DNA of 64,000 nucleotides from Escherichia coli. GTDB taxonomy: Bacteria > Pseudomonadota > Gammaproteobacteria > Enterobacterales > Enterobacteriaceae. A program made the position numbers and the translations under genes. The notes beneath the pieces were generated by a model. It did no database searches, was not told where the DNA came from, and saw only the letters and a list, made by a program, of their open reading frames with translations. Of the stretch, positions 36,810-64,000 are shown piece by piece (position 1 is the first letter of the stretch; the number at the start of each line of letters is the position of its first letter). Location of the stretch: the NCBI RefSeq assembly GCF_003334335.1, contig NZ_QOWQ01000005.1; one strand, written 5' to 3'.

Positions 36810-37022
36810 AACTGTAACCTTCGAATTGTGGAGTCAGAGACAATCTCAGACACGAATACTTCTATCATATCACTACACGGCGCTGGCTACAGCCATTCAC
36901 CGAAAGTGGTATGCCTGAGCGTGATTTATGCTTATTTTTTGACAAGTACAAATGCTTCATCTCGTATCAACCTATGGCTTTCGGTAATATGTGCTGAAAT
37001 TTGCCCAGTCTGGAGAATCGCG

Positions 37023-38219: not shown

Positions 38220-38228
38220 GGATGTGAA

Positions 38229-39254: not shown

Positions 39255-39492
39255 CACGAACAAGGGCTGGTATTCCAGCCCTTTTATCTGAGGATAATCT
39301 GTTAAATATGTAAAATCCTGTCAGTGTAATAAAGAGTTCGTAATTGTGCTGATCTCTTATATAGCTGCTCTCATTATCTCTCTACCCTGAAGTGACTCTC
39401 TCACCTGTAAAAATAATATCTCACAGGCTTAATAGTTTCTTAATACAAAGCCTGTAAAACGTCAGGATAACTTCAGAGGTCGTCGGTAATTT

Positions 39493-41473: not shown

Positions 41474-41476
41474 AAC

Positions 41477-42736: not shown

Positions 42737-42769
42737 GGTATTAATCGCCTTTCCCCTCATGGGGAGGGA

Positions 42770-44314: not shown

Positions 44315-44558
44315 TGCGACAACCTCATACTCAAGAGTCAAAATTTGCGTAATTTTACTACAGCTGAATCGATAAAATAGCCTCTGAAGATCAAAATATA
44401 CGACCGCTCGCGGCAAGCCGATGCCAGATTTGCGCTTTTTTTTCGTCGTGCCCCGCAAAATTGCATTCCAGTTAACGCGCTGGCTGTATTTGCCGCACCG
44501 CGCAGGTATACTCCTTTCCTGGTTTTTTTAATCACTACGTCGGGAGTTGTTACCCCCC

Positions 44559-44990
44559 ATGCAAGAAATTATGCAATTTGTTGGCCGTCATCCCATACTG
44601 AGTATCGCCTGGATCGCGTTACTGGTGGCGGTTCTTGTGACTACGTTTAAGAGCCTGACCTCGAAAGTGAAGGTGATTACTCGTGGTGAAGCTACGCGTC
44701 TGATCAACAAAGAAGACGCTGTGGTTGTGGATTTACGTCAGCGTGATGACTTCCGTAAAGGCCATATCGCAGGTTCTATCAATCTGTTGCCGAGCGAAAT
44801 CAAAGCCAACAATGTTGGTGAGCTTGAGAAGCACAAAGACAAACCGGTTATCGTGGTAGACGGTTCTGGCATGCAGTGCCAGGAGCCTGCAAACGCGCTG
44901 ACGAAAGCTGGTTTTGCGCAAGTATTCGTGCTGAAAGAGGGCGTTGCTGGCTGGGCTGGCGAAAACTTGCCTCTGGTGCGCGGCAAATAA
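44559..44990 (+). CDS. yibN: Rhodanese-domain membrane-anchored protein
   Basis: ORF 44547..44990 trimmed to [21 protein letters not shown] (143 aa). Confidence 0.8.
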
Positions 44991-45131
44991 TTTACCTGTC
45001 GTCTTTCATGATGCAGGCCGTTAGCTGCAATTAGGCCCCCAGCGACTTATTGTTATAAGCTTCTGGGGACACTCCATTTTGCAGCCGCCCTGCAACATGA
45101 AATTTCAGGGTAAAAAAACAGGAGCTAAATT

Positions 45132-45383
45132 ATGGCCAATGTTGAAATCTATACCAAAGAAACCTGCCCGTATTGCCATCGTGCAAAAGCACTGCTGAGC
45201 AGCAAGGGCGTGAGTTTTCAGGAGTTGCCGATCGATGGCAATGCCGCCAAGCGTGAAGAGATGATCAAACGCAGCGGTCGCACCACGGTTCCCCAGATTT
45301 TTATTGACGCACAGCACATTGGCGGCTGTGATGACTTGTATGCATTGGATGCACGTGGTGGACTGGATCCCCTGCTGAAATAA
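45132..45383 (+). CDS. grxC: Glutaredoxin 3
   Basis: 83-aa ORF with CPYC active site. Confidence 0.92.
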
Positions 45384-45445
45384 CGTGTGAACGTTGGCAT
45401 TACATTGCGCAGTATTTAAGGACAACACTTAAGGGTTTTCTACAC

Positions 45446-45913
45446 ATGTCAGAACAAAACAACACTGAAATGACTTTCCAGATCCAACGTATTTATACCA
45501 AGGATATCTCTTTCGAAGCGCCGAACGCGCCGCACGTTTTCCAGAAAGATTGGCAACCAGAAGTTAAACTTGATCTGGATACGGCATCTTCCCAACTGGC
45601 AGATGACGTATACGAAGTGGTACTGCGTGTTACCGTAACGGCCTCCCTGGGCGAAGAAACCGCGTTCCTGTGTGAAGTTCAGCAGGGCGGTATTTTCTCC
45701 ATCGCGGGTATCGAAGGCACCCAGATGGCACATTGCCTGGGCGCATACTGCCCGAACATTCTGTTCCCGTATGCTCGTGAGTGCATCACCAGCATGGTAT
45801 CCCGCGGTACATTCCCGCAACTGAACCTTGCGCCGGTTAACTTCGATGCGCTGTTCATGAACTATTTGCAGCAGCAGGCTGGCGAAGGTACTGAAGAACA
45901 TCAGGATGCCTGA
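45446..45913 (+). CDS. secB: Protein-export chaperone SecB
   Basis: 155-aa [32 protein letters not shown]. Confidence 0.95.
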
Positions 45914-46932
45914 TGAACCAACGTAATGCTTCAATGACTGTGATCGGTGCCGGCTCGTACGGCACCGCTCTTGCCATTACCCTGGCAAGAAATGGCCACG
46001 AGGTTGTCCTCTGGGGCCATGACCCTGAACATATCGCAACGCTTGAACGCGACCGCTGTAACGCCGCGTTTCTCCCCGATGTGCCTTTTCCCGATACGCT
46101 CCATCTTGAAAGCGATCTCGCCACTGCGCTGGCAGCCAGCCGTAATATTCTCGTCGTCGTACCCAGCCATGTCTTTGGTGAAGTGCTGCGCCAGATTAAA
46201 CCGCTGATGCGTCCTGATGCGCGTCTGGTGTGGGCGACCAAAGGGCTGGAAGCGGAAACCGGGCGTCTGTTACAGGACGTGGCCCGCGAGGCGTTAGGCG
46301 ATCAAATTCCGCTGGCGGTTATCTCTGGCCCAACGTTTGCGAAAGAACTGGCGGCAGGTTTACCGACAGCTATTTCGCTGGCCTCGACCGATCAGACCTT
46401 TGCTGATGATCTTCAGCAGCTGCTGCACTGCGGCAAAAGTTTCCGCGTTTACAGTAACCCGGATTTCATTGGCGTGCAGCTTGGCGGCGCGGTGAAAAAC
46501 GTCATTGCCATTGGTGCGGGGATGTCCGACGGTATCGGTTTTGGTGCGAATGCGCGTACGGCGCTGATCACCCGTGGGCTGGCTGAAATGTCGCGTCTTG
46601 GCGCGGCGCTGGGTGCCGATCCTGCCACCTTTATGGGCATGGCGGGGCTGGGGGATCTGGTGCTTACCTGTACCGACAACCAGTCGCGTAACCGCCGTTT
46701 TGGCATGATGCTCGGTCAGGGCATGGATGTACAAAGCGCGCAGGAGAAGATTGGTCAGGTGGTGGAAGGCTACCGCAATACGAAAGAAGTCCGCGAACTG
46801 GCGCATCGCTTCGGCGTTGAAATGCCAATAACCGAGGAAATTTATCAAGTATTATATTGCGGAAAAAACGCGCGCGAGGCAGCATTGACGTTATTAGGTC
46901 GTGCACGCAAGGACGAGCGCAGCAGCCACTAA
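45913..46932 (+). CDS. gpsA: NAD(P)H-dependent glycerol-3-phosphate dehydrogenase
   Basis: 339-aa ORF with [10 protein letters not shown] Rossmann motif; ATGA overlap with the secB stop. Confidence 0.93.
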
Positions 46933-47011
46933 CCTCAGGGAACCTTTGTTACCGCTATGACCCGGCCCGCGCAGAACGGGCCGGTCATTATCTCATCGTG
47001 TGGAGTAAGCA

Positions 47012-47833
47012 ATGTCGTGTGAAGAACTGGAAATTGTCTGGAACAATATTAAAGCCGAAGCCAGAACGCTGGCGGACTGTGAGCCAATGCTGGCCAGTTT
47101 TTACCACGCGACGCTACTCAAACACGAAAACCTTGGCAGTGCACTGAGCTACATGCTGGCGAACAAGCTGTCATCGCCAATTATGCCTGCTATTGCTATC
47201 CGTGAAGTGGTGGAAGAAGCCTACGCCGCTGACCCGGAAATGATCGCCTCTGCGGCCTGTGATATTCAGGCGGTGCGTACCCGCGACCCGGCAGTCGATA
47301 AATACTCAACCCCGTTGTTATACCTGAAGGGTTTTCATGCCTTGCAGGCCTATCGCATCGGTCACTGGTTGTGGAATCAGGGGCGTCGCGCACTGGCAAT
47401 CTTTCTGCAAAACCAGGTTTCTGTGACGTTCCAGGTCGATATTCACCCGGCAGCAAAAATTGGTCGCGGTATCATGCTTGACCACGCGACAGGCATCGTC
47501 GTTGGTGAAACGGCGGTGATTGAAAACGACGTATCGATTCTGCAATCTGTGACGCTTGGCGGTACGGGTAAATCTGGTGGTGACCGTCACCCGAAAATTC
47601 GTGAAGGTGTGATGATTGGCGCGGGCGCGAAAATCCTCGGCAATATTGAAGTTGGGCGCGGCGCGAAGATTGGCGCAGGTTCCGTGGTGCTGCAACCGGT
47701 GCCGCCGCATACCACCGCCGCTGGCGTTCCGGCTCGTATTGTCGGTAAACCAGACAGCGATAAGCCATCAATGGATATGGACCAGCATTTCAACGGTATT
47801 AACCATACATTTGAGTATGGGGATGGGATCTAA
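47012..47833 (+). CDS. cysE: Serine O-acetyltransferase
   Basis: 273-aa ORF MSCEELEIVWNNIKAEART with left-handed beta-helix hexapeptide repeats. Confidence 0.93.
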   Translation: MSCEELEIVWNNIKAEARTLADCEPMLASFYHATLLKHENLGSALSYMLANKLSSPIMPAIAIREVVEEAYAADPEMIASAACDIQAVRTRDPAVDKYSTPLLYLKGFHALQAYRIGHWLWNQGRRALAIFLQNQVSVTFQVDIHPAAKIGRGIMLDHATGIVVGETAVIENDVSILQSVTLGGTGKSGGDRHPKIREGVMIGAGAKILGNIEVGRGAKIGAGSVVLQPVPPHTTAAGVPARIVGKPDSDKPSMDMDQHFNGINHTFEYGDGI

Positions 47834-47847
47834 TGTCCTGTGATCGT

Positions 47848-47880
47848 GCCGGATGCGATGTAATCATCTATCCGGCCTAC
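47848..47880. repeat. REP (repetitive extragenic palindrome) element
   Basis: gccggatgcgatg...tatccggcctac between convergent cysE and trmL. Confidence 0.6.
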
Positions 47881-47885
47881 AGTAA

Positions 47886-48359
47886 CTAATCTCTCAATAC
47901 CGCTCCCGGATACCCCAACTGCCGCCAGGCTTCATACACCACTACCGACACCGCATTGGACAGATTCATGCTGCGGCTGTCCGGCACCATCGGAATGCGA
48001 ATTTTTTGTTCAGCGGGCAGGGCATCAAGAATGCTCGCTGGCAGGCCGCGTGTTTCCGGGCCGAACATCAGATAATCGCCATCCTGATAGCTTACGGCGC
48101 TGTGAGCAGGTGTACCTTTCGTGGTGAGGGCGAACAGGCGCTGGGGATTTTCTGCTTCGAGGAACGCGCGATAGTCATGATGACGCGTAACGGCGGTAAA
48201 CTCGTGATAGTCCAGCCCCGCGCGGCGCAGGCGCTTATCGTCCCAGGCAAATCCCATCGGTTCGATGATATGCAGACGAAAGCCGGTATTAGCGCAAAGA
48301 CGGATGATGTTGCCAGTATTTGGCGGAATTTCTGGTTCGTAAAGTACGATGTTTAGCAT
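47886..48359 (-). CDS. trmL: tRNA (cytidine/uridine-2'-O)-methyltransferase TrmL (SPOUT)
   Basis: 157-aa [29 protein letters not shown]. Confidence 0.88.
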
Positions 48360-48394
48360 ACTGCCCCCTTAGTGCGGGGGCAGGATAGCAGAAA

Positions 48395-48550
48395 ATTGGT
48401 GAGCAGTGCGGCCTTTTCCCCTCACCCCGGCCCTCTCCCCGGAGGGGCGAGGGAGAAAAAAAGAGTGCGGTGTCGTTTCAGAGTGAGGGAGTACATACAG
48501 CGCCGAACGGTCCCCTCTCCCTGAGGGAGAGGGTTAGGGTGAGGGGGCGC
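48395..48550. repeat. GC-rich palindromic intergenic repeats (ccctctcc / ggagaggg and ccctcaccc / gggtgaggg units)
   Basis: Several inverted copies of the same short GC-rich units; the same family recurs at 55160-55378. Confidence 0.55.
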
Positions 48551-48556
48551 AAACGA

Positions 48557-49747
48557 CTATGCCGCATTCCCTTTCGCCATGGGAGCCAGTGCCGCAGGCA
48601 ACTCTTTACCCAGCCCCTGCACCAGCGAATCTTGCGTAATTTCGCTGATCGATTTCGCGCCAGTCAGCGTCATCGCCACTTTCATCTCTTTTTCGATCAG
48701 ATTTAGCAGGTTAGCTACACCCGCCTGGCCCGCTGTTGCCAGCGCATACAAGAAAGCACGACCCAGCAGTACGGTGTCGGCACCGAGCGCAATCATACGC
48801 ACGACATCAAGCCCGTTACGAATTCCGCTATCCGCCAGAATGGCTATATCACCTTTCACCGCATCTGCAATAGCAGGCAGTGCACGGGCGGAAGAGAGTA
48901 CACCGTCCAGCTGGCGGCCACCGTGGTTAGAAACCACAATTCCATCAGCACCAAAACGTACTGCATCGCGCGCATCTTCCGGATCGAGGATCCCTTTGAT
49001 CACCATCGGGCCATCCCAGAAATCGCGGATCCATTCAAGGTCTTTCCATGAGATGGACGGATCGAAGTTATTCCCCAGCCAGCCGATGTAATCTTCCAGT
49101 CCGGTCGGTTTGCCGAGATAAGCTGAGATATTACCTAAATCATGTGGACGACCGTTCAGGCCCACATCCCACGCCCATTGCGGATGTGTCACCGCTTGCA
49201 AGTAGCGGCGCATTGCCGCGTTCGGGCCGCTCATACCTGAATGCGCATCACGGTAGCGTGCGCCCGGTGTCGGCATATCCACGGTGAAAACCAGCGTCGA
49301 ACAACCCGCTGCTTTTGCTCGCTCCAGCGCGTTACGCATAAAGCCGCGATCGCGCAGTACATAAAGCTGGAACCACATTGGGCGCTTGATGGCTGGCGCG
49401 ACTTCTTCAATCGGGCAAACGGAAACCGTCGAGAGAGTAAACGGAATACCATGCGCGTCCGCCGCTTTGGCTGCCTGAACTTCGCCACGACGCGCATACA
49501 TGCCACACAAACCCACCGGAGCCAGTGCCACCGGCATCGACAATTTCTCATTAAACAGCGTCGTTTCCAGGCTTAAGTCGGACATGTTTTTCAGAATACG
49601 CTGGCGCAGCGCCACTTCTGACAAATCTTCCACGTTGCGGCGCAGCGTGTATTCAGAATATGCACCACCATCCATATAGTGGAACAGGAACGGCGGCAGA
49701 ATGCGTTGCGCTGCGGCGCGATAATCGCTGGCTGCGGAAATAATCAT
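48557..49747 (-). CDS. lldD: L-lactate dehydrogenase (FMN-dependent)
   Basis: 396-aa alpha-hydroxy-acid oxidase-family ORF. Confidence 0.92.
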
Positions 49748-50520
49748 GCGTTTTTCTCCCTCGAATGCTCATTATGCTCACCGGGCAGGCGGGTAATCCG
49801 TGCGTGGCGAGCCTGATCTTCATCGAATCGTTTCATGGTGGTGTGAACAAAACTAAGGTGCGCCATCATTGCTTTACGCGCCCCGTCAGCATCACCGGCA
49901 AAAATGGCGTCAATGACAGCCTGATGTTGTTCGGTCAGTTGTGAAAAAACCGGTGGCACCAGATACATCCGCTGACGGCTATGCTTCACTGAGGATTGCA
50001 GGACATCGAAGAAACCGCGCATGGTTTGCAGCAGCACGATGTTATGTGAGGCTTCGGCAATCGCCAGATGAAAACGAACGTCCGCTTGTGAGGCGATATC
50101 CGGGTCTTCACTTAGCGTTGCTTCAAAGCAAAGCTGAATCTTTTCTTTGTCGCCAGGTGTGGCGCGCATTGCCGCATGCCATGCGGTGCTGGCTTCAATG
50201 GCGTAGCGGGCTTCCAGAATATCGAAACTGTAATCCGGATCATCGGCCATCAGTGTTTTTAGCGGCTGGACGATGTTTTGCTCCGACCATGTGTCATGAC
50301 GCCAGCGAATAAACGTCCCGCCGCCGCGTCGACTGAGCAGCACGCCTTCACTCACCAGTTTTGCCAGCGCCTCGCGCAGTGAATTACGTGATACGCCGAG
50401 TTGCATCGCCAGTTGGCGCTCAGCGGGCAACTTCATGCCCGCTTCCAGGTTTTTTTCATCAATCAGCGCCCGCACACGATCGGCAACCTCGTCTGACAGG
50501 CGTCTGGGTAAAACAATCAT
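49744..50520 (-). CDS. lldR: L-lactate operon regulator (GntR/FadR family)
   Basis: ORF 49744..50535 trimmed to [22 protein letters not shown] (258 aa). Confidence 0.88.
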
Positions 50521-52175
50521 TAAGGAATCATCCACGTTAAGACATAAGCCTGAAGCGTGGTGATCACGCCCACTATACAGGTGAAGATCAGGCTGTGTTT
50601 GACAGTAAAGCGGAACAAATCAGACTCTTTGCCCACCAGGCCTACCGCCGCACAGGCGATAGCGATAGATTGCGGGGAGATCATCTTACCGGTGACGCCA
50701 CCGGTGGTATTGGCGGCAACCAGCAACAGATCAGAGACGCCAATTTGTTGTGCTGCGGTGGCTTGCAGCGCGGCGAACAGGGCGTTAGATGAGGTATCCG
50801 ACCCGGTCAGGAATACCCCCAGCCAGCCGAGGAACGGCGAGAAGAAGGTGAATGCATGACCGGTGTGCGCCAGTGCCAGCGCCAGTGTTGATGACAGTCC
50901 GGAATAGTTCGAAATAAAGGCGAATGCCAGCACCATACCGATGGAGTAGATGGGCAGAGCCAGTTCTTTCAGCGTGCTGCCGAAGGTGCTGATAGCGTCA
51001 GACGGTTTCATCTTCAGCCAGACAATCGAGAGCAGTGCAGCAAACAGAATGGCGGTGCCGGTGGCAGAGAACCAGTCAAACTTAAACACGGCGGCATAGG
51101 CTGTAGCCTCGCTGACCACTGGCGGCATACGGGCAACCAGTTTATCGAGGTACGGCACCGGAATATTGATCACCCACTCATACAGCGCGCCACCCGATGC
51201 GAACAGGGCTTTAAACGGCGGGATACTCCACAGTGTTACGGTAGCTGTCAGGAACAGGAACGGTGTCCAGGCACGTAACACCTGACCCGCAGTGTAACCG
51301 GTGTGGGCCAGCGTCATATCAACCTGTGACGCCCCCAAATCACCAAAACGGAATACACGCACTGGCTGCCAGCGTTTGAGGAACAGCGTCAGGCAGAGCA
51401 GTGATACCAGCGAAGAGATAATGTCCGGCAGCTCCGGCCCAATGAAGTTAGAGCTAAGGTACTGAGCGATGGCAAACGAGCCGCCCGCAACCACGACCGC
51501 AGGCCACGTCTCTTTGATACCGCGCCAGCCGTCCATAATCGCCATGATCCAGAACAGCACGATAATGGTCATAAACGGTAGCTGCCGCCCCACCATCTGA
51601 CCAATCTCAAAGCTGTCGATACCTGTTACCTGTCCGGCAACCAGGATTGGAATGCCCATCGCACCAAATGCCACTGGCGCGGTGTTAACAATCAGGCACA
51701 GCCCGGCGGCGTACAGCGGTTTAAAACCCAGGCCGACCAGCAATGCGGCGGTAATTGCTACCGGTGCGCCAAAGCCTGCGGCTCCTTCAAGGAACGCGCC
51801 GAAACAGAAACCGACGATCAGCATTTGCAGACGCTGGTCAGGGGTTATCGAAAGAATAGACGAGCGAATGATGTCAAACTGCCCGGTTTTCACCGAGATC
51901 TTATAGACGAACACCGCTGCAATAATGATCCACGCGATGGGCCACAACCCGTAGAAGAAACCATAAACCACCGAGGCCAGCGCGTTAGCGACCGGCATTT
52001 TATAGAACAGCAAAGCCACGGCAAGGGCGATTGCCACCGTCCACGAGGCGGCGACGTATCCTTTCAGTTTGAGCTTAATCAGCGCAAAGAAGAAAAACAG
52101 GATGGGAAGCGATGCTATCAGACTGGAAAGCCAGATATTCCCGGCGGGATCGTAGTTTTGTTGCCAGAGATTCAT
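50520..52175 (-). CDS. lldP: L-lactate permease
   Basis: ORF 50520..52202 trimmed to [15 protein letters not shown] (551 aa). Confidence 0.88.
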
Positions 52176-52373
52176 TGCAGGTCTCCTGGAGTCCACGCAC
52201 ATCGTGTAATGAGTCTGTTGCTCATCTCCTTGTCACACGTTGTGTAAAAGTGGCACTGCCAATTGTGTTGTGTAGGGATAATGACAATGAATGGTTAACT
52301 AAATGTTATGTATTGGCAACATTGATGTGAGTTTTAATTGGGAAATTGTGAACCAGAGGTCAGATAAGCGAAG

Positions 52374-52390
52374 AATTGGTAGGGCCAATT
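52374..52390. promoter_or_regulatory. Candidate LldR operator, perfect palindrome AATTGG-TAGGG-CCAATT
   Basis: 17-bp palindrome about 200 bp upstream of lldP; matches my recollection of the lldPRD operator AATTGGCCCTACCAATT on the coding strand. Confidence 0.6.
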
Positions 52391-52546
52391 CTTGTGGGGG
52401 GAGATGTCTGGTAAAGAAAAGGGCAATCCTCATCAGAGAATTGCCCTTAGGTTGTTGATCCAGAGCGCCTTATCTTGCCGGATGCGGCGTGAACACCTTA
52501 CTCGGCCTATAGGAATGTGCAGAATCACCCTGTAGATACTGTGTTC

Positions 52547-52909
52547 TTAAAACGCGGTCTTTGAAAACCCAGTCATCTCCTGCAGGCCCATTTCGCGGCC
52601 CAGTGCGGTCATTGGGTGCACAACGACCAGTCCGCGAACACTTTTCTTCAGCTTGCCCATATCAGCCTGCTCTTTTTTGGTAATTGCGCGCTGGAATGGC
52701 ATCTTCATCAGCTTCTGTGCTTCTTTACTCAGTTTTTGGCTATGAACTTCACGCAGGCGAGCAATTTCTGCTTCCAGCGTGGCTTTCTCTTTTTCCAGCT
52801 CGGCATATTTGTCTGCGGCTTCAACCAGCGAAAGATCGGCCTGCTGGTGGCGGATGGCGTCCAGGCGATCGCTGAGACGTTTGATTTCGTTTTTTTCGAC
52901 TTCTTTCAT
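52547..52909 (-). CDS. yibL: DUF2810 family coiled-coil protein
   Basis: 120-aa [26 protein letters not shown]. Confidence 0.75.
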
Positions 52910-53193
52910 GTGATGGCTTCTGATAAAGATAAATTTATAGCCCCTAGTATGCGCGACCAGGTGCTTTGTTCACAACTAATGACATTGTAATAGTTCTGTA
53001 ACGTAATCATTAACATGCTCAAAAACTACGCAATTCGTTGATTAATTAAGAAATCTATAGAAAAAAGATAATAAACAGCAGCGGATGATTATTGAGGATT
53101 CAGCACGTTTTCCTTAATGTCATCTTTACCGGGAACCTAAACTAAAATTGGCGGCCGCGCATTCCCGGCGCGGGGTAATACGGAGATATCATC

Positions 53194-53403
53194 ATGGGCA
53201 AATTAGGTGAAAACGTTCCGCTTCTTATCGATAAAGCCGTAGATTTCATGGCATCAAGCCAGGCGTTCCGGGAGTATCTGAAAAAACTTCCTCCCCGTAA
53301 CGCGATTCCGTCCGGAATACCCGATGAAAGCGTGCCGTTATATCTACAACGTCTGGAGTATTATCGTCGGCTTTATCGGCCGAAGCAGGTAGAGGGGCAG
53401 TAA
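53194..53403 (+). CDS. yibT: Small protein of unknown function
   Basis: 69-aa [34 protein letters not shown]; symbol from recalled synteny between mtlR and yibL; hairpin plus T-run downstream. Confidence 0.55.
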
Positions 53404-53414
53404 GCAGACGTTGC

Positions 53415-54002
53415 TTACTTTTGAAAGGCTTTTTTTAAGCTGATTTTGGAAATCAGCTCAGTCAGTGAAAGGACCATTGTTGATCGCACAGCCTGTTGAT
53501 AGCGCTGAATTTGCATTGCATACAAACTGGAGTCTGCTGGTTCAAACTGTGGCGGCGGTGGTAACGCCGCCACGCAGTGCAGTTCACCAAAGGGTCCAAG
53601 GATTTCGTCGTCGGTAAAGGCGTACTCGTTGCCGTCGTGATTTAGCTCTTCACGCAATGCCATCAGCAGTTCCGCATCTTCGTATTCCTGGCGGTTAATG
53701 ACGCCCAACCCGTAAATGAGTTTTAAACGCACAGAAAGATCGCCCAGCGGACCATCGCCGTCGAGTAACGGTTCTACAGCATACTTCACCGCGTAATCGT
53801 CTTTGCGGAATACCTGAAGCACCAGAAGATTTACCGCCTCGGTCAGGAGCTCGACGGCGGTGATCAGAAAGCTTCGCACGGTTTTGCCAGCATTCAGACG
53901 CTCAAGCACACGGTTTTCAAAGGCCTGGGTTTGTTCCATTGTTGCCTGCATATCTGACAATCTGTTATTCGGGCGCAGGGTGTCCTGCGCCTGGTCCACC
54001 AT
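53415..54002 (-). CDS. mtlR: Mannitol operon repressor
   Basis: 195-aa ORF immediately downstream of mtlD. Confidence 0.85.
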   Translation of the reverse strand: MVDQAQDTLRPNNRLSDMQATMEQTQAFENRVLERLNAGKTVRSFLITAVELLTEAVNLLVLQVFRKDDYAVKYAVEPLLDGDGPLGDLSVRLKLIYGLGVINRQEYEDAELLMALREELNHDGNEYAFTDDEILGPFGELHCVAALPPPPQFEPADSSLYAMQIQRYQQAVRSTMVLSLTELISKISLKKAFQK

Positions 54003-55150
54003 TATTGCATTGCTTTATAAGCGGTTACCGCCTCGGATACAACCTCGCTGTTGGCATCAAGACCGGAAATCTGTGCCAGCGCCGCCTGCGGACCTTTGTC
54101 AGCGATCAGTGCTGCCAGTTCCTGAGCCTGCGGATCATCTTCACTGCGGAAGTGCATTGCAGCGGCAATACCTTCAATCAGGTTTTTATGTGGCAGACCA
54201 TATTCCAGCGTACCGAGCAGTGGCTTGATCAGACGGTCGCCAGCACTCAGTTTACGCAGTGGCTGACGGCCTACGCGCTCTACATCATCTTTCAGATACG
54301 GGTTCTCAAAACGGCCGAGAATTTTCTGGATGTACGCCGCATGCTTGTCAGCGTCAAAGCCGTAGCGCTTGATCAATACTGCACCACTTTCTTCCATCGC
54401 ACCTTTTACCACCGCGCGGATTTTCTCGTCGAGAATCGCGTCACGAATGGTCTGATGACCGGCCAGTTTTCCGAGGTACGCGGTTATAGCATGACCCGTG
54501 TTCAGGGTGAAGAGTTTACGTTCGACAAATGCCATCAGGTTGTCGGTTAACTCCATGCCTGGGATGTTCGGCAGTGCGCCTTTGAACTGCGTTTTATCGA
54601 CAATCCATTCGCTGAAGGTTTCTACCGTCACTTCCAGCGGATCGTTAGTTGCCGAAGCCGAAGGCGGTACGATGCGGTCAACGGCGGAATCGACAAAGCC
54701 AACGTGTTCTTCTACCCACGCTTTGGCGTCTTCCGGCAGGGCGTTCATCACATGGCCTTTCAGCTGCGTGGTACCGCGTACCATGTTTTCACAGGCGATG
54801 ATGTTCAGCGGGGATTCATTACCTTGTTCTTTACGTTTCACCAGCCCTTTGGCGATTGCCGGAGCAATACGTTCCAGCACAACCGGGCCAACGGCGGTAG
54901 TGACTAAATCAACCTGAGCAATCAGATCAACGACATCATCACCAATGCTGCTGACAGCATTGACGCCGGAAACGGTATCTACCTGCTCGGTTTCACCAAC
55001 CACATGTACCTGATAGCTATGACGGGCATTCAGGGCATCAAGTACCACCTGATTGACATCGGCAAACGTCAGTTGGATACCCGCGTCTGCCAGCAGTTTA
55101 CCGATAAAGCCACGACCGATATTACCTGCGCCAAAATGTAATGCTTTCAT
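54002..55150 (-). CDS. mtlD: Mannitol-1-phosphate 5-dehydrogenase
   Basis: ORF track 54002..55468 is over-extended through the REP cluster; true N-terminus [17 protein letters not shown] (382 aa). Confidence 0.9.
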
Positions 55151-55159
55151 AGTATTAAC

Positions 55160-55378
55160 CTTCATCAATGTTTTTACCCGAGAGGGCTGGGGTGAGGCTT
55201 TTCCCTCACCCAAACCCTCTCCGTGAGGAGAGGGGCAGCGCCGGATGCGGCGTAAGCGCCTTATCCGGCCTACAAGAACGTGCAAATTCAACAAATTGTG
55301 ATGCATCCTGTAGGCCTGATAAGCGTAGCGCATCAGGCAATTAACCCCACCTTCTCCATGTGGAGAGGGTGGGATTGG
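55160..55378. repeat. REP / GC-rich palindromic repeat cluster in the mtlA-mtlD intergenic region
   Basis: Two canonical REP units (gccggatgcggcg...ccggcctac and gcctgataagcgtagcgcatcaggc) flanked by ccctctcc / ggagaggg palindromes. Confidence 0.7.
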
Positions 55379-55379
55379 A

Positions 55380-57293
55380 TTACTTACGACCTGCCAGCAG
55401 TTCCAGCACTTCATCCACGCTGGTGGTGTGTGCCAGACGCTCGATGACGGACTCATCATCCAGTGCATTGGTCAGGCTGGTGATAACCTGAATGTGCTCG
55501 TTGTTACGGGCAGCAATACCAATCACCAGACGGGCAATGTCATCTTCTTCTTCACCGAAGCGCACGCCTTCCGGGTACTGGCAGAACACGACGCCCGTTT
55601 TCAGTACGCGATCTTTCGCTTCAACCGTACCGTGTGGCACCGCGATAGACTCACCCAGATAAGTCGGGGTCAGTTTTTCACGATCCAGCATCGCCTGAAC
55701 GTATTCCGGCTCAACGTAACCGCCTTTCACCAGCTGCTCGCCAGCAAAACGAATCGCTTCTTCTTTGGTTGCCGCTTTGCGACCGAGGAAGATGTTCTCC
55801 GCGCCTAGCTTGAACAGGTTAGCACTGGAATCGTCAAAGCTGTCTTTCAGGCTGTCTTTTACTTTCTCTTCGTTTGCCGTGTGGCGTTGGGCAGCAACCA
55901 GACGTTCGGTCAGGCTGGTGTACAGGCCGCTGTCGAGGAAGTTGGTCAGCGAAATATGCTGTGCCTGCGGAACCTGGCGCATAGCGCGTTCGGTCAGGTC
56001 ACGGTGAGTGATGACGAGGTCCACATCTGGCGGCAGGTTGTTGATCGCGCTGTTAGTAACAGAAATCTGCGACAGACCTGCATCCTGAATTTTCTTACGC
56101 AGAACGCCTGCGCCCATCGCACTGGAACCCATACCGGCGTCACAGGCAACGATGATTTTACGTACGTGGCTCAGGTCGTTAGTCACATCGCCAGCAGACA
56201 GCGGAGATGCGCCTTTAGACTCAGCTTTCATGTCCTGCATACGACGAGTTGCTGCTTCAATATCATCTTCTTCTTTCACTTTGCTGGTTTTCAGCAAAAT
56301 AGCAGAGACAACGAAGGAGACAGCCATCGCCGCACACACACCCGCGATGTTAGCGAAGTAAGCACCTTTTGGTGTCATCGCCAGTACAGCAAGGATAGAA
56401 CCCGGAGATGCCGGAGAAACCAGACCACCGCCCAGGATAGTCAGCGTGAACACGCCAGTCATACCGCCGAGGATGACTGCGAGGATCAGACGCGGATTCA
56501 TCAGCACATACGGGAAGTAGATTTCGTGGATACCCCCCAGGAAGTGGATGATTGCCGCACCGCCCGCAGACTGTTTAGCGCTACCACGACCAAAGAACAT
56601 GTACGCCAGCAGCACGCCCATACCTGGACCTGGGTTAGCTTCAATCAGGAAGAAGATTGATTTACCCAGTTCATGGGACTGCTGAATACCCAGCGGCGAG
56701 AAGATACCGTGGTTAATGGCGTTGTTGAGGAACAGGATTTTCGCCGGTTCAACAAAGATAGACGCCAGCGGCAGCATGTCATGGACAACCATGAAGTTAA
56801 CGCCCGCAGCCAGCATTTTGGACAGGGCTTCAACAATCGGGCCAATGCCGAGGAATGCCAGAATAGCGAGGATCATCCCGATGATGCCTGCGGAGAAGTT
56901 ATTCACCAGCATCTCAAAACCGGATTTGATCTTACCGTCTACCCAGCGGTCGAAGTGCTTAATGCACCAGCCGCCCAGCGGACCTGCAATCATAGAACCG
57001 AGGAACATCGGCATGTCTGCGCCGACGATAACGCCCATGGTGGTGATGGCACCGACTACGCCGCCACGTTCGCCGCCTACCAGCTTACCACCGGTATAAC
57101 CGATCAGCAGCGGCAGGAGATAAGTGATCATCGGCCCGACCAGCTTCGCCAGCGTCTCGTTCGGTAACCACCCTGTTGGAATAAATAACGCGGTGATGAT
57201 ACCCCACGCGATAAACGCGCCGATATTTGGCATCACCATGTTGCTGAGGAAACGACCAAAGCTTTGCACTTTGATCTTAATATCGGATGACAT
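55380..57293 (-). CDS. mtlA: PTS mannitol-specific EIICBA component
   Basis: 637-aa [34 protein letters not shown]. Confidence 0.93.
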
Positions 57294-57436
57294 AAAAACA
57301 CCCCTTCTTATGTTTGCTGTCGCGCAGGCTGGAAGCCCGAGGTTTTTTGTTAATGTGGCGGCAGAGGTAGCCGGACCTTGTAGATACTGCGAAATCTGGC
57401 ACTGAATCGGTTAACTGTCCAGTCGACGGCCTTTTG

Positions 57437-57452
57437 TGTGATATCAATCACA
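57437..57452. promoter_or_regulatory. CRP site TGTGA-tatcaa-TCACA (mtlA promoter region)
   Basis: Perfect symmetric CRP core motif. Confidence 0.65.
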
Positions 57453-57553
57453 TAAATATAGGGGGTAGAGAGGTAATTGACGTGACGTTCATCACAAAAC
57501 GCTTGTGTAAAAAAGCAACAAGGCGGCGATTTTCGCTAAAAATGGCATTTAAA

Positions 57554-57569
57554 TGTGAGTAGTGTCACA
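57554..57569. promoter_or_regulatory. CRP site TGTGA-gtagtg-TCACA (mtlA promoter region)
   Basis: Perfect symmetric CRP core motif. Confidence 0.65.
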
Positions 57570-57597
57570 TTTTTGTTTTGATGGTTTGTTGAATCTT

Positions 57598-57613
57598 TGT
57601 GATCTGAATCACA
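57598..57613. promoter_or_regulatory. CRP site TGTGA-tctgaa-TCACA (mtlA promoter region)
   Basis: Perfect symmetric CRP core motif. Confidence 0.65.
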
Positions 57614-57829
57614 AGATATTTTCTTACGGCGTTCACCTGATGTGATCTACAGCATGTTATGCCTTCGTCATACAATCGTTATGTAACTAAGCAACTCATC
57701 ACCTCTAAAAATTATTCTTTGGTGTTATGGCGAGAATCGCGAACCCGGATTATTGTCAAAATATCAGCCTGACTCCCTTCTGGCTGCCAGCCCAAAAACA
57801 ACACTGATAAACGTGAATCCGAGGCAGAT

Positions 57830-58192
57830 ATGTTTCTAAACTATTTCGCGTTGGGAGTGCTGATCTTCGTCTTTCTGGTGATTTTTTATGGAATCATCGC
57901 GATACATGACATCCCTTATCTGATTGCCAAAAAGCGCAACCATCCCCATGCCGACGCTATTCATACGGCGGGCTGGGTGAGCCTGTTTACTCTGCATGTT
58001 ATCTGGCCGTTTCTGTGGATCTGGGCGACGCTCTATCAACCGGAGCGTGGCTGGGGTATGCAGTCACATGTTGCGTCGCAGGAGAAAGCGACTGACCCGG
58101 AAATCGCCGCACTTTCTGACCGAATTTCCCGGCTGGAGCATCAACTCGCCGCCGAGAAAAAGACTGACTATTCCACGTTCCCGGAGATCTAA
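57830..58192 (+). CDS. yibI: Small inner-membrane protein (DUF3302)
   Basis: 120-aa ORF with two predicted TM helices; stop is 2 nt before the yibH start. Confidence 0.75.
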
Positions 58193-58194
58193 TT

Positions 58195-59331
58195 ATGGAT
58201 CTATTGATTGTTTTAACTTACGTGGCGCTGGCGTGGGCGGTCTTTAAAATCTTCCGCATTCCGGTAAATCAGTGGACGCTGGCGACGGCGGCGCTGGGAG
58301 GCGTGTTTCTGGTGAGTGGTTTGATTTTGTTGATGAACTACAACCACCCTTACACTTTTACCGCGCAAAAGGCAGTGATAGCGATCCCTATCACGCCACA
58401 GGTGACGGGAATTGTTACTGAAGTCACTGACAAGAATAATCAGCTTATTCAAAAGGGCGAGGTGCTTTTTAAGCTCGACCCGGTTCGTTACCAGGCGCGA
58501 GTTGACAGACTTCAGGCTGACCTGATGACGGCGACGCATAATATAAAGACGCTGCGTGCGCAGCTCACTGAAGCGCAGGCCAACACCACCCAGGTTTCAG
58601 CGGAGCGCGACCGTCTGTTTAAAAATTATCAACGTTACTTGAAAGGCAGCCAGGCGGCGGTGAATCCGTTCTCGGAACGTGACATCGACGATGCGCGGCA
58701 AAATTTCCTCGCGCAGGATGCGCTGGTGAAAGGCTCGGTGGCGGAGCAGGCGCAGATCCAGAGCCAGCTCGACAGTATGGTTAACGGCGAGCAATCGCAG
58801 ATTGTGAGCTTAAGAGCGCAACTTACTGAAGCAAAATATAACCTTGAGCAGACTGTCATTCGCGCGCCGAGCAATGGCTACGTTACTCAGGTACTGATCC
58901 GCCCAGGTACATACGCAGCTGCCTTGCCGCTGCGTCCGGTGATGGTCTTCATCCCCGAGCAAAAACGGCAAATTGTCGCCCAATTTCGGCAAAACTCGCT
59001 GTTACGTCTGAAACCCGGCGATGATGCGGAAGTGGTGTTTAACGCGCTACCTGGGCAGGTGTTTCACGGCAAACTGACTAGTATTTTACCTGTCGTGCCA
59101 GGCGGTTCTTATCAGGCGCAGGGGGTATTGCAATCATTAACGGTCGTGCCCGGCACGGACGGTGTGCTGGGAACCATTGAACTGGACCCTAACGATGATA
59201 TCGATGCCTTACCCGACGGCATCTACGCCCAGGTGGCGGTTTACTCCGACCATTTCAGCCATGTTTCGGTGATGCGGAAAGTGCTGCTAAGAATGACCAG
59301 CTGGATGCATTATCTTTATTTGGATCATTGA
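58195..59331 (+). CDS. yibH: HlyD-family periplasmic adaptor protein
   Basis: 378-aa ORF with N-terminal TM anchor, coiled-coil and beta-barrel regions typical of membrane-fusion proteins. Confidence 0.8.
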
Positions 59332-59790
59332 GGGGGAGGGGGGAGATTATGGAACTTTGCTCCTTGTAAGGACTAATTATTTTTGCATATTACTTCATTA
59401 GCTGCGATGATTTTTCTTTAATATTCATTATGTTAATAAGTTCTGGATGAGTGTGCTCTCATTGGATTTTTTATCCGTCTTGTTCTGCCGCAGGATGAGA
59501 CTATACATCGTCGAGATCGCAATGATGATATGAGTTGTTCCTCCTGCGACGGCTCTAATCAAAAAAGAGCAGGAGTGCTTTTCCATCTATTGCGATGATG
59601 GCTTTATTATCTGAAGGATGACAGTCACATTTAAAAAATATTTAATCTATAGATCACAATGTAGGGTCATGGAATATATGTATACAACTATTTTCTTCTT
59701 CACTTTTAATTATCGTATTCATTATAAAACTAAGTTAAAAAAACTCCTGGAGAGTGAGTTATTAATATATTTTTAAATAAAATTAAGTTA

Positions 59791-60228
59791 TCATTCATCG
59801 ATGCACTTTATAGAATCATCAATGGCCATAATAGTACTATTAACTCTCAATTTTATATTTTTATCATCACTACAAATATTAACTGAATTTATATCAATGA
59901 TTTTTTTATTCTTATCTTTTATTTTATTTACTGTTTCAATGCAATCAGCGGCAAGTTGGAGTGGATTTAGATTTTTCAGATATGGTCTTATGATCTTTCC
60001 CTTACTTAATAAATAGCATGTATAGGATTCGGAAAGTCCAGCATCTATTTTGTACCTCATTATATTAGATAAGGATGTGAGAAATTCCTTGTTATCATTC
60101 GCAGCCATATATGCCAGTCCGAGTTCAGCCTCTGCGGCCTTACAGGCAAAATAGCTTAGTGAACACGCTTTTCGTCCCTCTTTAGTACTGGCTGATATTA
60201 GTGCCCATAATATTGCTTTGTCTGCCAA
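59791..60228 (-). CDS. Hypothetical protein; candidate immunity protein of the degenerate third Rhs module
   Basis: 145-aa AT-rich ORF immediately downstream (minus strand) of a degraded Rhs C-terminal remnant; role inferred from position only. Confidence 0.4.
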   Translation of the reverse strand: MADKAILWALISASTKEGRKACSLSYFACKAAEAELGLAYMAANDNKEFLTSLSNIMRYKIDAGLSESYTCYLLSKGKIIRPYLKNLNPLQLAADCIETVNKIKDKNKKIIDINSVNICSDDKNIKLRVNSTIMAIDDSIKCIDE

Positions 60229-60316
60229 ATCTAACTCTCTCTGAAATTGTCTTGCAGTAACTGCACTCGCAGAAATAGAGAAAAAAATACAATTGTTAAT
60301 AACCTTGCCATATTTT

Positions 60317-60900
60317 TTAGTCCGTAACTGTTAATGTGCTATCTGGCTCTGAAAATATTAACTCATTTAATTTTTGCATGTCATTAGATAAACCAGTTAT
60401 ACAACCCTCGGAACAGAATCGAGGTCCTAAAGACGGACCAAAAGCGTTTAAACAACTATGTATTGAAAATCCATTGCGATTATAAGTTCCTGTATTAACT
60501 GACGGTACTAATCGTATGCCGTCAGGTTTTCTATTGCTTGCTCCCGGGTCATTAACATTCCAACTCCATAGGCCTTGAGGTATTGGCCATCTATTTATAA
60601 ATGTGTACAACGGGGATTATTTTTACATTGCATATTATTACCAGAAGCGACTGGAATACTAAGCACATCATAAAAATTATCATCACATGGTATATCTGAA
60701 ACACACGAAAGCATACCTAAAGTTATGCTGTATAAACAGGTGGCTAATCCCAAGGGGATCGATTCCAGAAATCGGGTTCAACGGATACTGATAAAAATTC
60801 CACCTACCTTCCAGCCCAATCGGAGCCTGAGTGTTATACCGCCCCTGCTGCGGTTAATGTTACCGATAATAGTTATAGTACAGCCCTGATTCATCATCAT
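60317..60900 (-). pseudogene. Degenerate orphan Rhs C-terminal (toxin-tip) remnant
   Basis: About 140 bp (60764-60900) of degraded similarity to the Rhs core 3' repeat, followed by AT-rich sequence with only a 97-aa ORF (60317..60610) and no continuous frame. Confidence 0.45.
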
Positions 60901-60934
60901 ACTACTGCTGCGGCAGTCTGATGAACTATTGCTT

Positions 60935-61396
60935 TTACGGATTCTCCTTATTCTTCCTTCTATCCATTCGCTTTAGCTTTTTGAGCTCTTGAAGTTTGCT
61001 CTTTGCATCAATATTACCGTTATTTACAGCGAATTCCATCCAATAAATAGCTCTATTCAAATTATAATATTCTGATAATGTTGGATTTGTATCTGATAAA
61101 AAGACCCCATAATTAAACTGCGCTGTAACATTCCCCTGAGATGCTGATCTTTCCAAGAATCGCAATTGTTTGTAAATGTTATTTTTAGTAAAGCAGTAAT
61201 ATTGATATAGTCGAAATGATGCCTCTGAATCACCATGTTGTGATTTATACTTCAGTTTCATCAACTTTTCTTCACTTAAATCATAGGTCATTGCTGTAGA
61301 CCCCATCATACTTTCGTTTTGTTTTATTTTCACATCAGCACCATGCAATTGACAAATAAAAGAGAAATAAAAAAATAGTAACAAGCATGCTTTCAT
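60935..61396 (-). CDS. yibG: Sel1-repeat protein; candidate immunity for the orphan Rhs toxin tip
   Basis: 153-aa ORF with signal-like N-terminus and Sel1/TPR-like repeats; immediately follows the orphan Rhs tip. Confidence 0.6.
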   Translation of the reverse strand: MKACLLLFFYFSFICQLHGADVKIKQNESMMGSTAMTYDLSEEKLMKLKYKSQHGDSEASFRLYQYYCFTKNNIYKQLRFLERSASQGNVTAQFNYGVFLSDTNPTLSEYYNLNRAIYWMEFAVNNGNIDAKSKLQELKKLKRMDRRKNKENP

Positions 61397-61407
61397 ACAT
61401 CTACAAC

Positions 61408-62352
61408 CTATCTTATATCACTGGGTTTTTCTGGCGTACCTTGCATATTAGAAATGGGGTGCCCAGATGGCCCATATGTTATCCAATTACCAAGGTCTTT
61501 TGTTGTTATAGCCATTAGATCCTTATTTGAATTAAGGTTCGTTGGTGCTGTTAGCACTGTATCCATTTTTAACTTACCATTAGTTCCTCGCCCCCACCAC
61601 GTCCATAGCGTGTCAGGTCCTATTACATTTGTATGTAACTCTTTAGCTAATTGGCTAGCAAATGAATTTTGTCCTTTACCTGTATTACAAGAAAATAACC
61701 AAACTGTCATCCCATCTTTATAATTCCCATCAAATTTAATTAGATATGCTAGATCTTTAGCTGTCATGATACTGCGCGTTGCGGATTCAATAGATGTGGG
61801 GGAACCATGCCCCCCGATTGTGAAAACGCCTGGGATATTAATCTCATCAGCTACAGAATGGATAAGATCACTTTCGGGGTATAAATTTATATCAACCAAA
61901 CCTTGCGGATCTACATTTATGACCGGATTCAACGGATACTGATAAAAATTCCATCCCCCCTTCAGTCCAATCGGATCCTGAGTGATATACCGCCCCAGCA
62001 GCGGGTCATAATAGCGGTGGCGGTTGTAATACAGGCCGGACTCCTCATCATACTGCTGACCCGGCAGGCGAATGAGCTGCTGCAGATGATGCGGGTTCTC
62101 ATCACTCAGCAGGTTGCCCCATTCATCATATTCTGCGCACCACGCTGTTGCCCCTTCCGTGCTGATGAGCGCCAGCGGCAGGCCGCGATGGTCGCAGTGG
62201 TACAGGTGGATTTTTCGCGCCGGCGTGTACACCGGGTCCATCTGGTTTTGCATCTGCTCCACGGTCAGGCCGCACGATGCCAGCCAGCGGCGGCTTTCCT
62301 CACTCACCCGGTCAGCCAGGATTTCACTTTCCAGCCGGTCGAGCATCTGCAC
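61408..62352 (-). CDS. yibJ: Orphan Rhs C-terminal fragment (core 3' end plus distinct toxin domain)
   Basis: 314-aa ORF; N-terminal part matches the Rhs core end ([26 protein letters not shown]...[16 protein letters not shown]) and is followed by a divergent AT-rich C-terminal domain. Confidence 0.65.
61924..62250. repeat. Rhs core 3'-end repeat, copy in the orphan module
   Basis: About 95 percent identical over about 330 bp to 63675..64000. Confidence 0.75.
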
Positions 62353-62393
62353 CGTGCCGGCGGGAATCCCCCACTGTGCATAGGCAACTCACG

Positions 62394-63236
62394 CTATGAA
62401 CGCTTCAGCTTATCAATAGCGGAAGTTATAATTTCATTGTCATCAAACTTGTACAACATAGTATCTAAAACAGGAAGTAGCGTTTTATCACCTAATTCAC
62501 CCGCAGCTTCAATGATATCATCATAAACAGTATTTTTTTTTAACTCATCGCATAAAACAGATAAAACCCTTTTATCTTTTCTGTAGGAAAGTCCGATTAT
62601 TGCTTCAATACGGACTTCCTCATTTTTATCCTGAAGCATCTCCACAAAACAATCCCTAATATCACTATTATCATATTTATTGATATTTATTGCAAATGCG
62701 GCCCAGTTTCTGACATCTCCATTTGGATCTTTTAACAGATTAATCAATAGTGGAATTGTTGCTTTATCATTGATAACAGAAATAGCAAATGCTGTAGCAC
62801 GTCTGACATTAGTCGATTTATCAAAAGCAGTAATTTGAGATTGTTCTACTATTTTAGGTGAATAAATTGGGTTTTTCTTGCATCGCTGAGCCGTTGACTC
62901 GATTGCCGTAGCTCGAACGCAAGCGCTCTTATCATTCAATGCCATATTGTTCAAAATATTAAAAACATTATCTTCGCATTTTTTGCAAATTTTTATTTGC
63001 CCGAGTATAAATGCTCCGATATCTCTACGGATATAATTTTTATCAGAGCAGAACTCAATTGCCAATCTAACAGCGTCTTGCCCACCTCTTAACTGTAATA
63101 CTCTGGCAGATGAAATCCTTTTCAAGGAATTGTGATCATCAAGTAAGCGAAATAATTCATCATCATTTAGTTTCTTACATTGATTATATAAACCATACTC
63201 TTTACTTGCCTTTCTTTTCTGGTATGTATTTGACAT
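62394..63236 (-). CDS. yibA: HEAT-repeat protein; candidate immunity for the main Rhs C-terminal toxin
   Basis: ORF 62394..63251 trimmed to MSNTYQKRK (280 aa); AT-rich; repeated helical units; immediately downstream of the Rhs tip. Confidence 0.65.
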   Translation of the reverse strand: MSNTYQKRKASKEYGLYNQCKKLNDDELFRLLDDHNSLKRISSARVLQLRGGQDAVRLAIEFCSDKNYIRRDIGAFILGQIKICKKCEDNVFNILNNMALNDKSACVRATAIESTAQRCKKNPIYSPKIVEQSQITAFDKSTNVRRATAFAISVINDKATIPLLINLLKDPNGDVRNWAAFAININKYDNSDIRDCFVEMLQDKNEEVRIEAIIGLSYRKDKRVLSVLCDELKKNTVYDDIIEAAGELGDKTLLPVLDTMLYKFDDNEIITSAIDKLKRS

Positions 63237-63256
63237 TGCAGGAACCTCCACAAGGG

Positions 63257-64000
63257 CTATCTTTTTTTATCGTTTGACTGTCTGGAGTGACGACAATTCC
63301 AGGCTTTCTGTGTGCTTTTTGCATCTTTAGCACTAATATCACCACAATCAATTAGTTCCTGAAGTACGTCACATCTGTCGGGTTTTTTCCCATCACTCCA
63401 GAATCTGTCATTTATTATGTCATTGACACGATCAGTTATCCCTGTGTCTGCAACATTTCCACGAGAAGCTATCATTGTTATATCTAATGCTAGTCCCGGA
63501 TTATTCAATATTAGAGAGTCAAATATTCTTTGTGATGCTGTATCGTTCCACCATTTTGTCAATGCTTTTGCAGCATTATCATCTGCTTGCTGCTGTGCAG
63601 GGCTTTTGGGCCATGGAATTGGCAAGGGGAATGGTCTAGGAAAAACTTCTAACCCCAGAGGATCTGTATTCGTAACTGGATTCAACGGATACTGATAAAA
63701 ATTCCATCCCCCCTTCAGCCCAATCGGATCCTGAGTGATATACCGCCCCTGCAGCGGGTCATAATAGCGGTGGCGGTTGTAATACAGGCCGGACTCCTCA
63801 TCATACTGCTGCCCCGGCAGGCGGATAAGCTGCTGCAGCTGATGCGGGTTCTCTTCATTCAGCAGGTTACCCCATTCATCGTATTCTGCGTACCACGCTG
63901 TTGTCCCTTCCGTGCTGATAAGGGCCAGCGGCAGGCCGCGATGGTCGCAGTGGTACAGGTGGATTTTTCGCGCCGGCGTGTACACCGGGTCCATCTGGTT
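63257..64000 (-). CDS. rhsA: Rhs protein, 3' end only (core end with DPxGL motif plus C-terminal toxin domain); continues past the window edge
   Basis: GC-rich core-end sequence ...[20 protein letters not shown]...DPLGL followed by about 125 aa of AT-rich variable C-terminus; the symbol follows recalled K-12 synteny. Confidence 0.7.
63675..64000. repeat. Rhs core 3'-end repeat, copy in the main gene
   Basis: Near-identical direct repeat of 61924..62250. Confidence 0.75.

Follow-up and report, generated by a model that had tools for sequence, protein, structure and literature searches.

The last part of a 64,000-nucleotide (nt) stretch of Escherichia coli DNA (contig NZ_QOWQ01000005.1 of assembly GCF_003334335.1; hereafter the window) is the downstream end of the rhsA element, an already known polymorphic-toxin locus and the place where Rhs was first described. 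From 56000 to 64000, open reading frame (ORF) listing, composition, and repeat searches reveal mtlA, yibI, and yibH followed by an AT-rich block on the minus strand (Table 1). The window presents the element as the reverse complement of its K-12 orientation; locus, gene order, and flanks (yibH, yibI, mtlA) are the same in both, and the annotations of strain WG5 and K-12 MG1655 list rhsA, yibA, yibJ, yibG, yibS, yibW, yibV, yibU, and then yibH. Identity to K-12 reaches 99.88% over the 9 kb from rhsA to yibH, with 11 differing positions across 55001-64000. In our population comparison set of 5,426 complete E. coli genomes, megablast recovered 59400-64000 at a coverage of at least 80% in 2,482, the best match being 99.8% identical.

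The window contains just the last 245 codons of rhsA, and near-identical genomes (WG5, K-12) carry the full 1,377-amino acid (aa) gene at the same position. An earlier note on this DNA, made from its letters, had described three toxin/immunity modules, "one full, one orphan, one degenerate"; the orphan and the degenerate module are present as described, while the full one lies beyond what the window displays and is seen in those near-identical genomes. At the other end, next to yibH, an ISAs1 remnant forms the distal boundary of the element. Strain RMDEC465 has a longer remnant there, annotated as an ISAs1 transposase pseudogene, which the window matches at 92.6%.

Table 1. Features of the rhsA element in the window, in the direction of rhsA transcription
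Feature	Position	Strand	Remarks
rhsA core 3' end (copy 1)	63650..64000	-	Cut by window end; TIGR03696, RHS_core, PF03527; GC 0.56
Tip 1, RhsA C-terminal toxin domain	63257..63649	-	130 aa; Ntox34 (PF15606); GC 0.40
yibA, HEAT-repeat immunity gene for tip 1	62394..63236	-	HEAT_2 matches; NF007244; start in the ORF listing is GTG 63251
Orphan core fragment (copy 2)	61897..62376	-	94.3% to rhsA; open frame from GTG 62352
Tip 2, intact orphan toxin tip (putative)	61408..61896	-	162 aa; K-12 yibJ region; predicted clan CD His/Cys peptidase fold; PGAP name DUF8616
yibG, Sel1/TPR-like candidate immunity gene for tip 2	60935..61396	-	N-terminal leader-like segment
Degenerate core remnant (copy 3)	60754..60953	-	Two in-frame stops in translation; K-12 pseudogene yibS; 5' edge overlaps yibG stop
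Tip 3, Tlde1-type L,D-peptidase toxin pseudogene	60317..60753	-	+1 nt near 60758; 9-nt in-frame deletion near 60644; -1 nt near 60597
Imm57 immunity pseudogene	59791..60311	-	ATG 60311 and leader in another frame; Imm57 domain in 145-aa ORF 59791-60228
ISAs1-family (H-repeat) transposase gene remnant	59401..59630	not assigned	Position of K-12 pseudogene yibU; between Imm57 pseudogene and yibH

Three copies of the Rhs core

The 3' end of the Rhs core is present three times in direct orientation on the minus strand, as the earlier note had proposed and as alignment and repeat search bear out. Copy 1, at 63675-64000, aligns with 61922-62247 at a fixed offset of 1753 nt, and 311 of the 326 positions are identical (95.4%); the identity of about 95% first given for this pair holds, and the partner segment, placed at 61924-62250, was off by 2-3 nt. 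When compared with full-length rhsA, copy 2 extends from about 62376 to 61907 (471 nt at 94.3%, rhsA nt 3261-3731) and copy 3 from about 60953 to 60774 (183 nt at 76.5%, rhsA nt 3531-3713). The repeat finder placed copy 3 at 60749-60932 with 72-76% identity, so that this degraded copy is real but larger by either measure than the 60764-60900 proposed for it. The second spacing between core repeats is 1151 nt.

Profile models identify the two better-preserved copies as Rhs core. The TIGR03696 Rhs-associated core model matches copy 1 with an E value of 6.4e-25 and copy 2 with 3.6e-25, and the RHS_core model is matched over its last 115 positions by copy 1 (positions 1147-1261) and its last 151 by copy 2; copy 1 additionally matches PF03527 (E 5.5e-17). 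Both copies close with the PxxxxDPxGL demarcation motif, at 63679..63650 and 61926..61897. Identity between the copies collapses within about 20 nt below 63675, abruptly at the motif, and at both motifs a core GC content of 0.56-0.58 gives way to a tip GC content of 0.39-0.40, a change sharp enough to have been picked out by eye. The locus therefore has the hallmarks of an Rhs element, namely a core ending in PxxxxDPxGL and, directly after it, a variable C-terminal domain of distinct composition.

Five of the 11 differences from K-12 are clustered in one 44-nt segment (63869-63912) of the 3' end of the rhsA core. K-12 agrees with the orphan core copy at some of these sites, and the window does so at others. 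The cluster looks like a possible gene-conversion patch among rhs cores.

Two modules of known families

Each core copy is followed by a different AT-rich tip and then by a small ORF, as anticipated. The earlier note had read these ORFs as a HEAT-repeat protein, a Sel1-repeat protein, and a 145-aa hypothetical protein; the first assignment stands, the second stands with a weak match, and the third ORF proves to be part of a frameshifted Imm57 gene. Among the tips, profile searches place the first in a family, give a weak match for the third, and find no family for the second. The three tips and the three immunity proteins belong to unrelated families and folds.

Module 1 falls within a known pairing. 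The 130 residues past DPLGL match Ntox34 (PF15606) over the entire model (positions 1-80 of 80; E 2.9e-43), and the next gene encodes a HEAT-repeat protein, YibA, which has HEAT_2 matches, matches NF007244 (E 3e-140), and is annotated as yibA in locus L001 of our comparison and in K-12. The sequences GNVAD and WNCRH in tip 1 fit the Ntox34 signature GNxxD and WxCxH listed by Zhang et al. (PMC3482391), who had already catalogued the pairing of Ntox34 with Imm-HEAT. In the passage of Poole et al. (PMC3150448) that cites Vlazny and Hill (1995), the C-terminal region of RhsA is described as blocking the recovery of cells from stationary phase, with yibA neutralizing this effect.

Module 3 is decayed. 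Tip 3 is, by alignment, a pseudogene of the Tlde1/PF10908 family, whose Tlde1-type enzymes attack peptidoglycan in the periplasm. Its frame shifts first at the DPLG boundary and a second time near 60597, and its lesions were mapped by alignment with strain 1190 (locus L007), which has an intact Tlde1 ORF. Once corrected for frame, tip 3 aligns along its whole length with Ralstonia and Paraburkholderia Rhs tips of the PF10908 family at 57-61% identity, and with an intact E. coli allele at 82%. The HSC (within SIHSC), NAFGPS, and SEGC motifs that these proteins share are retained. The direct Pfam match to PF10908 is weak (E 0.0058), and an intact PF10908 domain was not found in tip 3, its frame being broken twice and three residues deleted.

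The Imm57 gene lies directly downstream of the Tlde1-type tip, and the same arrangement occurs in Ralstonia. A composite of its frames matches PF15596 (E 1.9e-47) and is 35% identical, from residue 2 onward, to a Ralstonia Imm57 protein encoded next to a Tlde1 tip. We considered whether the frameshift could be an annotation artifact, the Imm57 domain being wholly within the 145-aa ORF, and rejected this explanation: the Ralstonia protein aligns through a leader that lies in another frame here, and the gene is therefore frameshifted. It is annotated as "frameshifted" in every genome inspected, and an extra A in K-12 at window position 59907 further shortens the Imm57 ORF to the 111-aa yibV. A Tox-LD-peptidase with Imm57 is likewise among the pairings already listed by Zhang et al. 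(PMC3482391). When set beside the Tlde1 effectors of type VI secretion systems (T6SS), module 3 shares the PF10908 similarity, the motifs, and the adjacent Imm57, but both of its genes are pseudogenes and its subfamily is fused to Rhs rather than being a stand-alone effector.

Tip 2 and YibG

The orphan in module 2 is an open 314-aa frame running from GTG 62352 to 61408. In K-12 the orphan tip is stopped at codon 234 (window 61653) by TAA, which is the reason yibJ is annotated as a pseudogene there; the window has CAA at this codon, the frame is kept, and tip 2 is therefore intact. Past the RHS core, tip 2 matched no Pfam family and no NCBIfam entry in libraries that did not include a model for DUF8616, the label that PGAP gives to tip 2 in some genomes. 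Among PDB sequences no match was found either with four sequences or with a 62-sequence profile at E<=10, and thus none of these three resources assigns tip 2 by sequence profile to a named clan CD family. Close relatives occur only in E. coli and Salmonella. An exhaustive profile search with the first ~105 residues of tip 2 recovered 725 relatives; some form the C-terminus of a full-length Rhs protein, and others are repeated within giant proteins.

His30 and Cys70 of tip 2 are invariant in 62 diverse sequences and present in 150 of 151 copies of the domain. An AlphaFold2 model built from these 62 sequences (a four-sequence model was poor, with a predicted local distance difference test score of 61) has a caspase-like alpha/beta fold in which the His and then the Cys each follow a hydrophobic strand. 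Gingipain, CHAT, legumain, clostripain, metacaspase, caspase-9, and separase appear further down the list of matches to the predicted fold, and Foldseek agrees weakly with clan CD, its E values reaching only 0.015. Tip 2 is thus predicted to adopt a clan CD His/Cys peptidase-like fold and to be a putative protease.

This prediction has precedents. Zhang et al. (PMC3482391) describe a "Tox-Caspase" class with a conserved H and C that is sometimes the C-terminal toxin, and tip 2 fits this class by description rather than by sequence. Tce1 and Tce2 have been described as putative His/Cys proteases, and mutation of the Cys abolishes the toxicity of Tce2 in yeast (PMC13323088). In comparison with C80-type cysteine protease domains and with Tce1/Tce2, tip 2 is smaller, with a core of ~105 aa, and at the level of sequence it matches nothing in Pfam, NCBIfam, or PDB. 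Moreover, tip 2 is fused to Rhs and has a Sel1-like partner, whereas Tce1 and Tce2 come without an immunity gene and are apparently directed against eukaryotes.

The partner, YibG, matches TPR_27 with an E value of 8e-4 and Sel1 weakly. In Salmonella salamae, a YibG homolog (46% identity) comes directly after an orphan tip that shares 47% identity with tip 2, and each of three distant full-length Rhs proteins ending in a tip 2 domain is followed by a YibG homolog of 114-132 aa (pairwise E 1e-7 to 1e-15). Tip 2 and YibG homologs thus covary consistently across four independent loci. Two of the three distant Rhs genes sit behind VgrG together with PAAR or DUF2169. The Salmonella salamae locus (L003, 1638-3898) continues with more orphan modules, first a TseH-domain tip with Imm58 and then a PLA2G12-like tip.

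A leader-like N-terminus is found in the window's YibG, in the Salmonella homolog, and in one distant homolog (L011), and is absent from two others. Such a putative export leader hints at a periplasmic target for tip 2. The stronger notion that tip 2 necessarily acts in the periplasm was downgraded, two of the five distinct YibG homologs being without the leader. The yibG gene is intact in every genome inspected.

We infer from these features that tip 2 is toxic and that YibG protects against it. A literature search found no functional study of tip 2 or of the tip 2/YibG pair. There is close to, though just under, an even chance in our estimation that the two constitute an uncharacterized antibacterial toxin/immunity family, in which a minimal clan CD protease carried on Rhs would be neutralized by a small Sel1-like protein.

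Variation of the locus in E. coli

Of the 5,426 complete genomes, 3,350 (~62%) contain tip 2 DNA. In an evenly spaced sample of 38 full-length tip 2 matches, eight belong to a full-length "RHS element core protein" and all others are orphans. Strain 7386WT (O157:H7) shows the native order of the attached state, with yibF, a full-length Rhs bearing tip 2, yibG, and module 3, and with module 1 absent. The full-length Rhs of the Shiga toxin-producing E. coli (STEC) strain 2011C-4251 also bears tip 2, and 312 of 314 aa are identical to the orphan in the window. Other strains have lost or exchanged modules: a deletion in E100341 leaves only module 3, strain 1190 lacks module 2 and has another main tip along with several additional immunity genes, and in strain a15 yibA persists behind another main tip but without Ntox34. 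These variants are the outcomes expected from recombination among shared core segments.

The loci of these strains have further features of their own. In a15, an RhsB-type DUF4329 tip and yhhH stand ahead of yibA (L017, 8942-9854 and 7995-8837). In 1190, NTF2-fold, DUF6258, and pentapeptide genes form a run that resembles a polyimmunity tract (L007, 8707-11661). In STEC 2011C-4251, the upstream neighbors of the Rhs gene with tip 2 are rpmE and priA, not yibF and selA (L006, 12398-14978). Such flanks imply a large rearrangement of the chromosome, one breakpoint of which lies at or close to the rhs gene.

Proposed recombination and its alternatives

The layout of the array is very probably explained by the displacement and reattachment of tips through recombination in the shared core, as the earlier note had suggested. 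Displacement by core recombination was proposed by Jackson et al. (PMC2935791), and activation of an orphan by recombination has been observed experimentally in Salmonella (Koskiniemi et al., PMC3967940). The large Rhs protein ends in a conserved, GC-rich core followed after DPxGL by an exchangeable, AT-rich toxin tip and then by the antidote gene. In this scheme, an incoming cassette of tip plus immunity gene would bring some core sequence along and recombine homologously with the resident core, and the older tip would be pushed downstream together with its immunity gene and a truncated stub of core. Recombination between the full core and an orphan core stub can delete the intervening module and reattach the orphan tip. 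When applied to the window, this would make Ntox34/YibA the current pair, the clan CD peptidase-like tip with YibG the previous one, and the Tlde1-type tip with Imm57 an older and now decayed one.

The repeat structure, the domain identities, the covariation of tips with their immunity genes, and the natural variants were obtained in the present analysis, and the unrelated tips, the covariation, and the variants all support displacement. Of the outcomes that the earlier note had named as refuting its reading, neither a failure of the repeats to align to an Rhs core nor a lack of covariation was seen: the repeats do align, and downstream ORFs covary with their tips in other genomes. The toxicity of tip 1, its neutralization by YibA, and the recombination mechanism itself are taken from the literature. 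An immunity gene in the expected position and its covariation with the tip were seen for all three modules, including Tlde1 and Imm57 in Ralstonia.

Several points weigh against this account. Neutralization is reported only for yibA, and there it comes second-hand, through the citation in PMC3150448. The order of events set out above is itself tentative, as is any choice between the array and the O157 arrangement as the ancestral state. No N-terminal part of rhsA and no vgrG, PAAR, or T6SS gene lies within the window; in near-identical genomes rhsA is flanked by yibF and selA with no vgrG upstream, and thus no linked delivery apparatus was found there. Finally, a promoter and terminator scan of 59300-64000 gave 14 promoter-like sites where 15.9 were expected, which is at chance level and uninformative on expression of the orphans.

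Recombination may also have run in the reverse direction, the three-module array being the older state from which O157:H7-type lineages lost Ntox34 and yibA by core-to-core recombination, activating tip 2. The near identity of the attached and orphan forms of tip 2 agrees with this possibility, as do the flanks common to both states (yibG, module 3, and yibH), and an activation event of this kind has been selected experimentally in Salmonella (PMC3967940). The same pattern would, however, be expected if the O157 state were ancestral and the Ntox34/yibA cassette had been inserted later, following the model of PMC2935791. We regard the array-first direction as a credible possibility and lean slightly against it.

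Alternatively, the orphans may be valued mainly for their immunity genes as a defense against tip-deploying neighbors, or may express tip and immunity gene internally, from promoters in the core stub, as a pair resembling a type II toxin/antitoxin (TA) system, or both. The intact yibG of all inspected genomes, set against the nonsense codon in the K-12 orphan toxin, speaks for a role in immunity, as does the retention in a15 of yibA without its toxin tip. With tip 2 attached in about one-fifth of the sampled tip 2 genomes, O157:H7 included, YibG would be useful to carriers of the orphan. In Salmonella, transcription of main as well as orphan tips begins 89 nt upstream of PxxxxDPxGL, and the tips act as type II TA-like modules (Stårsta et al., PMC7043789); the orphan in the window keeps ~450 nt of core ahead of this motif, along with its open frame from GTG 62352. 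On the other hand, the E. coli core differs from that of Salmonella, the promoter scan stayed at chance level, and selection for immunity alone would not need an orphan toxin frame as fully intact as the one in the window. The earlier note's idea of a downstream stockpile of orphans thus holds as one of two published roles, the other being internal TA-like expression. We consider it possible, though rather doubtful, that immunity or TA-like expression is what mainly keeps the orphans, and either role would complement recombination rather than displace it.

Tandem duplication of a single toxin/immunity module followed by divergence in place, which direct repeats at similar spacing might have suggested, is very improbable, and we excluded it because the tips and the immunity proteins are unrelated in family and fold, with identity between copies stopping abruptly at DPxGL and tips 2 and 3 closer to Salmonella and Ralstonia relatives than to each other.

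Relation to known systems

Displacement and reattachment by core recombination, our preferred explanation, has close parallels elsewhere. In the rhs locus of Salmonella Typhimurium LT2 (PMC3967940, PMC7043789), a full-length rhs gene is followed by an orphan tip on a core stub with its own immunity gene, as in the window. The LT2 orphan can fuse to the main gene, and E. coli lineages carry tip 2 in the attached form. The toxin domains of the two loci differ, however, and the window has two generations of orphan, one of them dead. The LT2 locus also lies in a T6SS island, while the rhsA locus has no T6SS genes nearby. Orphan cdiA-CT/cdiI arrays (PMC3150448) follow the same logic: downstream of the main gene stand displaced tips in tandem, each with a conserved upstream stub and an immunity gene linked to it. 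Those arrays differ in their secretion route and in their carrier, CdiA, which has a VENN motif where Rhs has DPxGL.

Other features of the window

Beyond the rhsA element, divergence from K-12 shifts sharply near 47 kb, with 14 differences in 47000-64000 compared with 1-6% per kb in 37000-47000, which suggests a possible boundary of a recombination mosaic. The waa region for the lipopolysaccharide (LPS) core, at 25246-33794, is only 86-88% identical to K-12 or is unmatched: 26362-31193 has a match in K-12, and 25246-26362 and 31193-33794 have none. The strain probably has an LPS core type other than that of K-12. A JUMPstart RNA element (Rfam RF01707) lies at 22269-22307 on the plus strand with a score of 53.1 bits, and it is the only Rfam family to reach its gathering score in the whole window.

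Implications

The rhsA locus itself brings nothing new in that both the orphan-tip layout and the recombination mechanism have been published, and a polymorphic-toxin array of this kind can be recognized from raw sequence alone. The sole, modest lead that the locus offers is the tip 2/YibG pair. Tip 2 is intact in this strain, is widespread in E. coli, and is the active tip in O157:H7, and together with YibG it is a directly testable toxin/immunity candidate.

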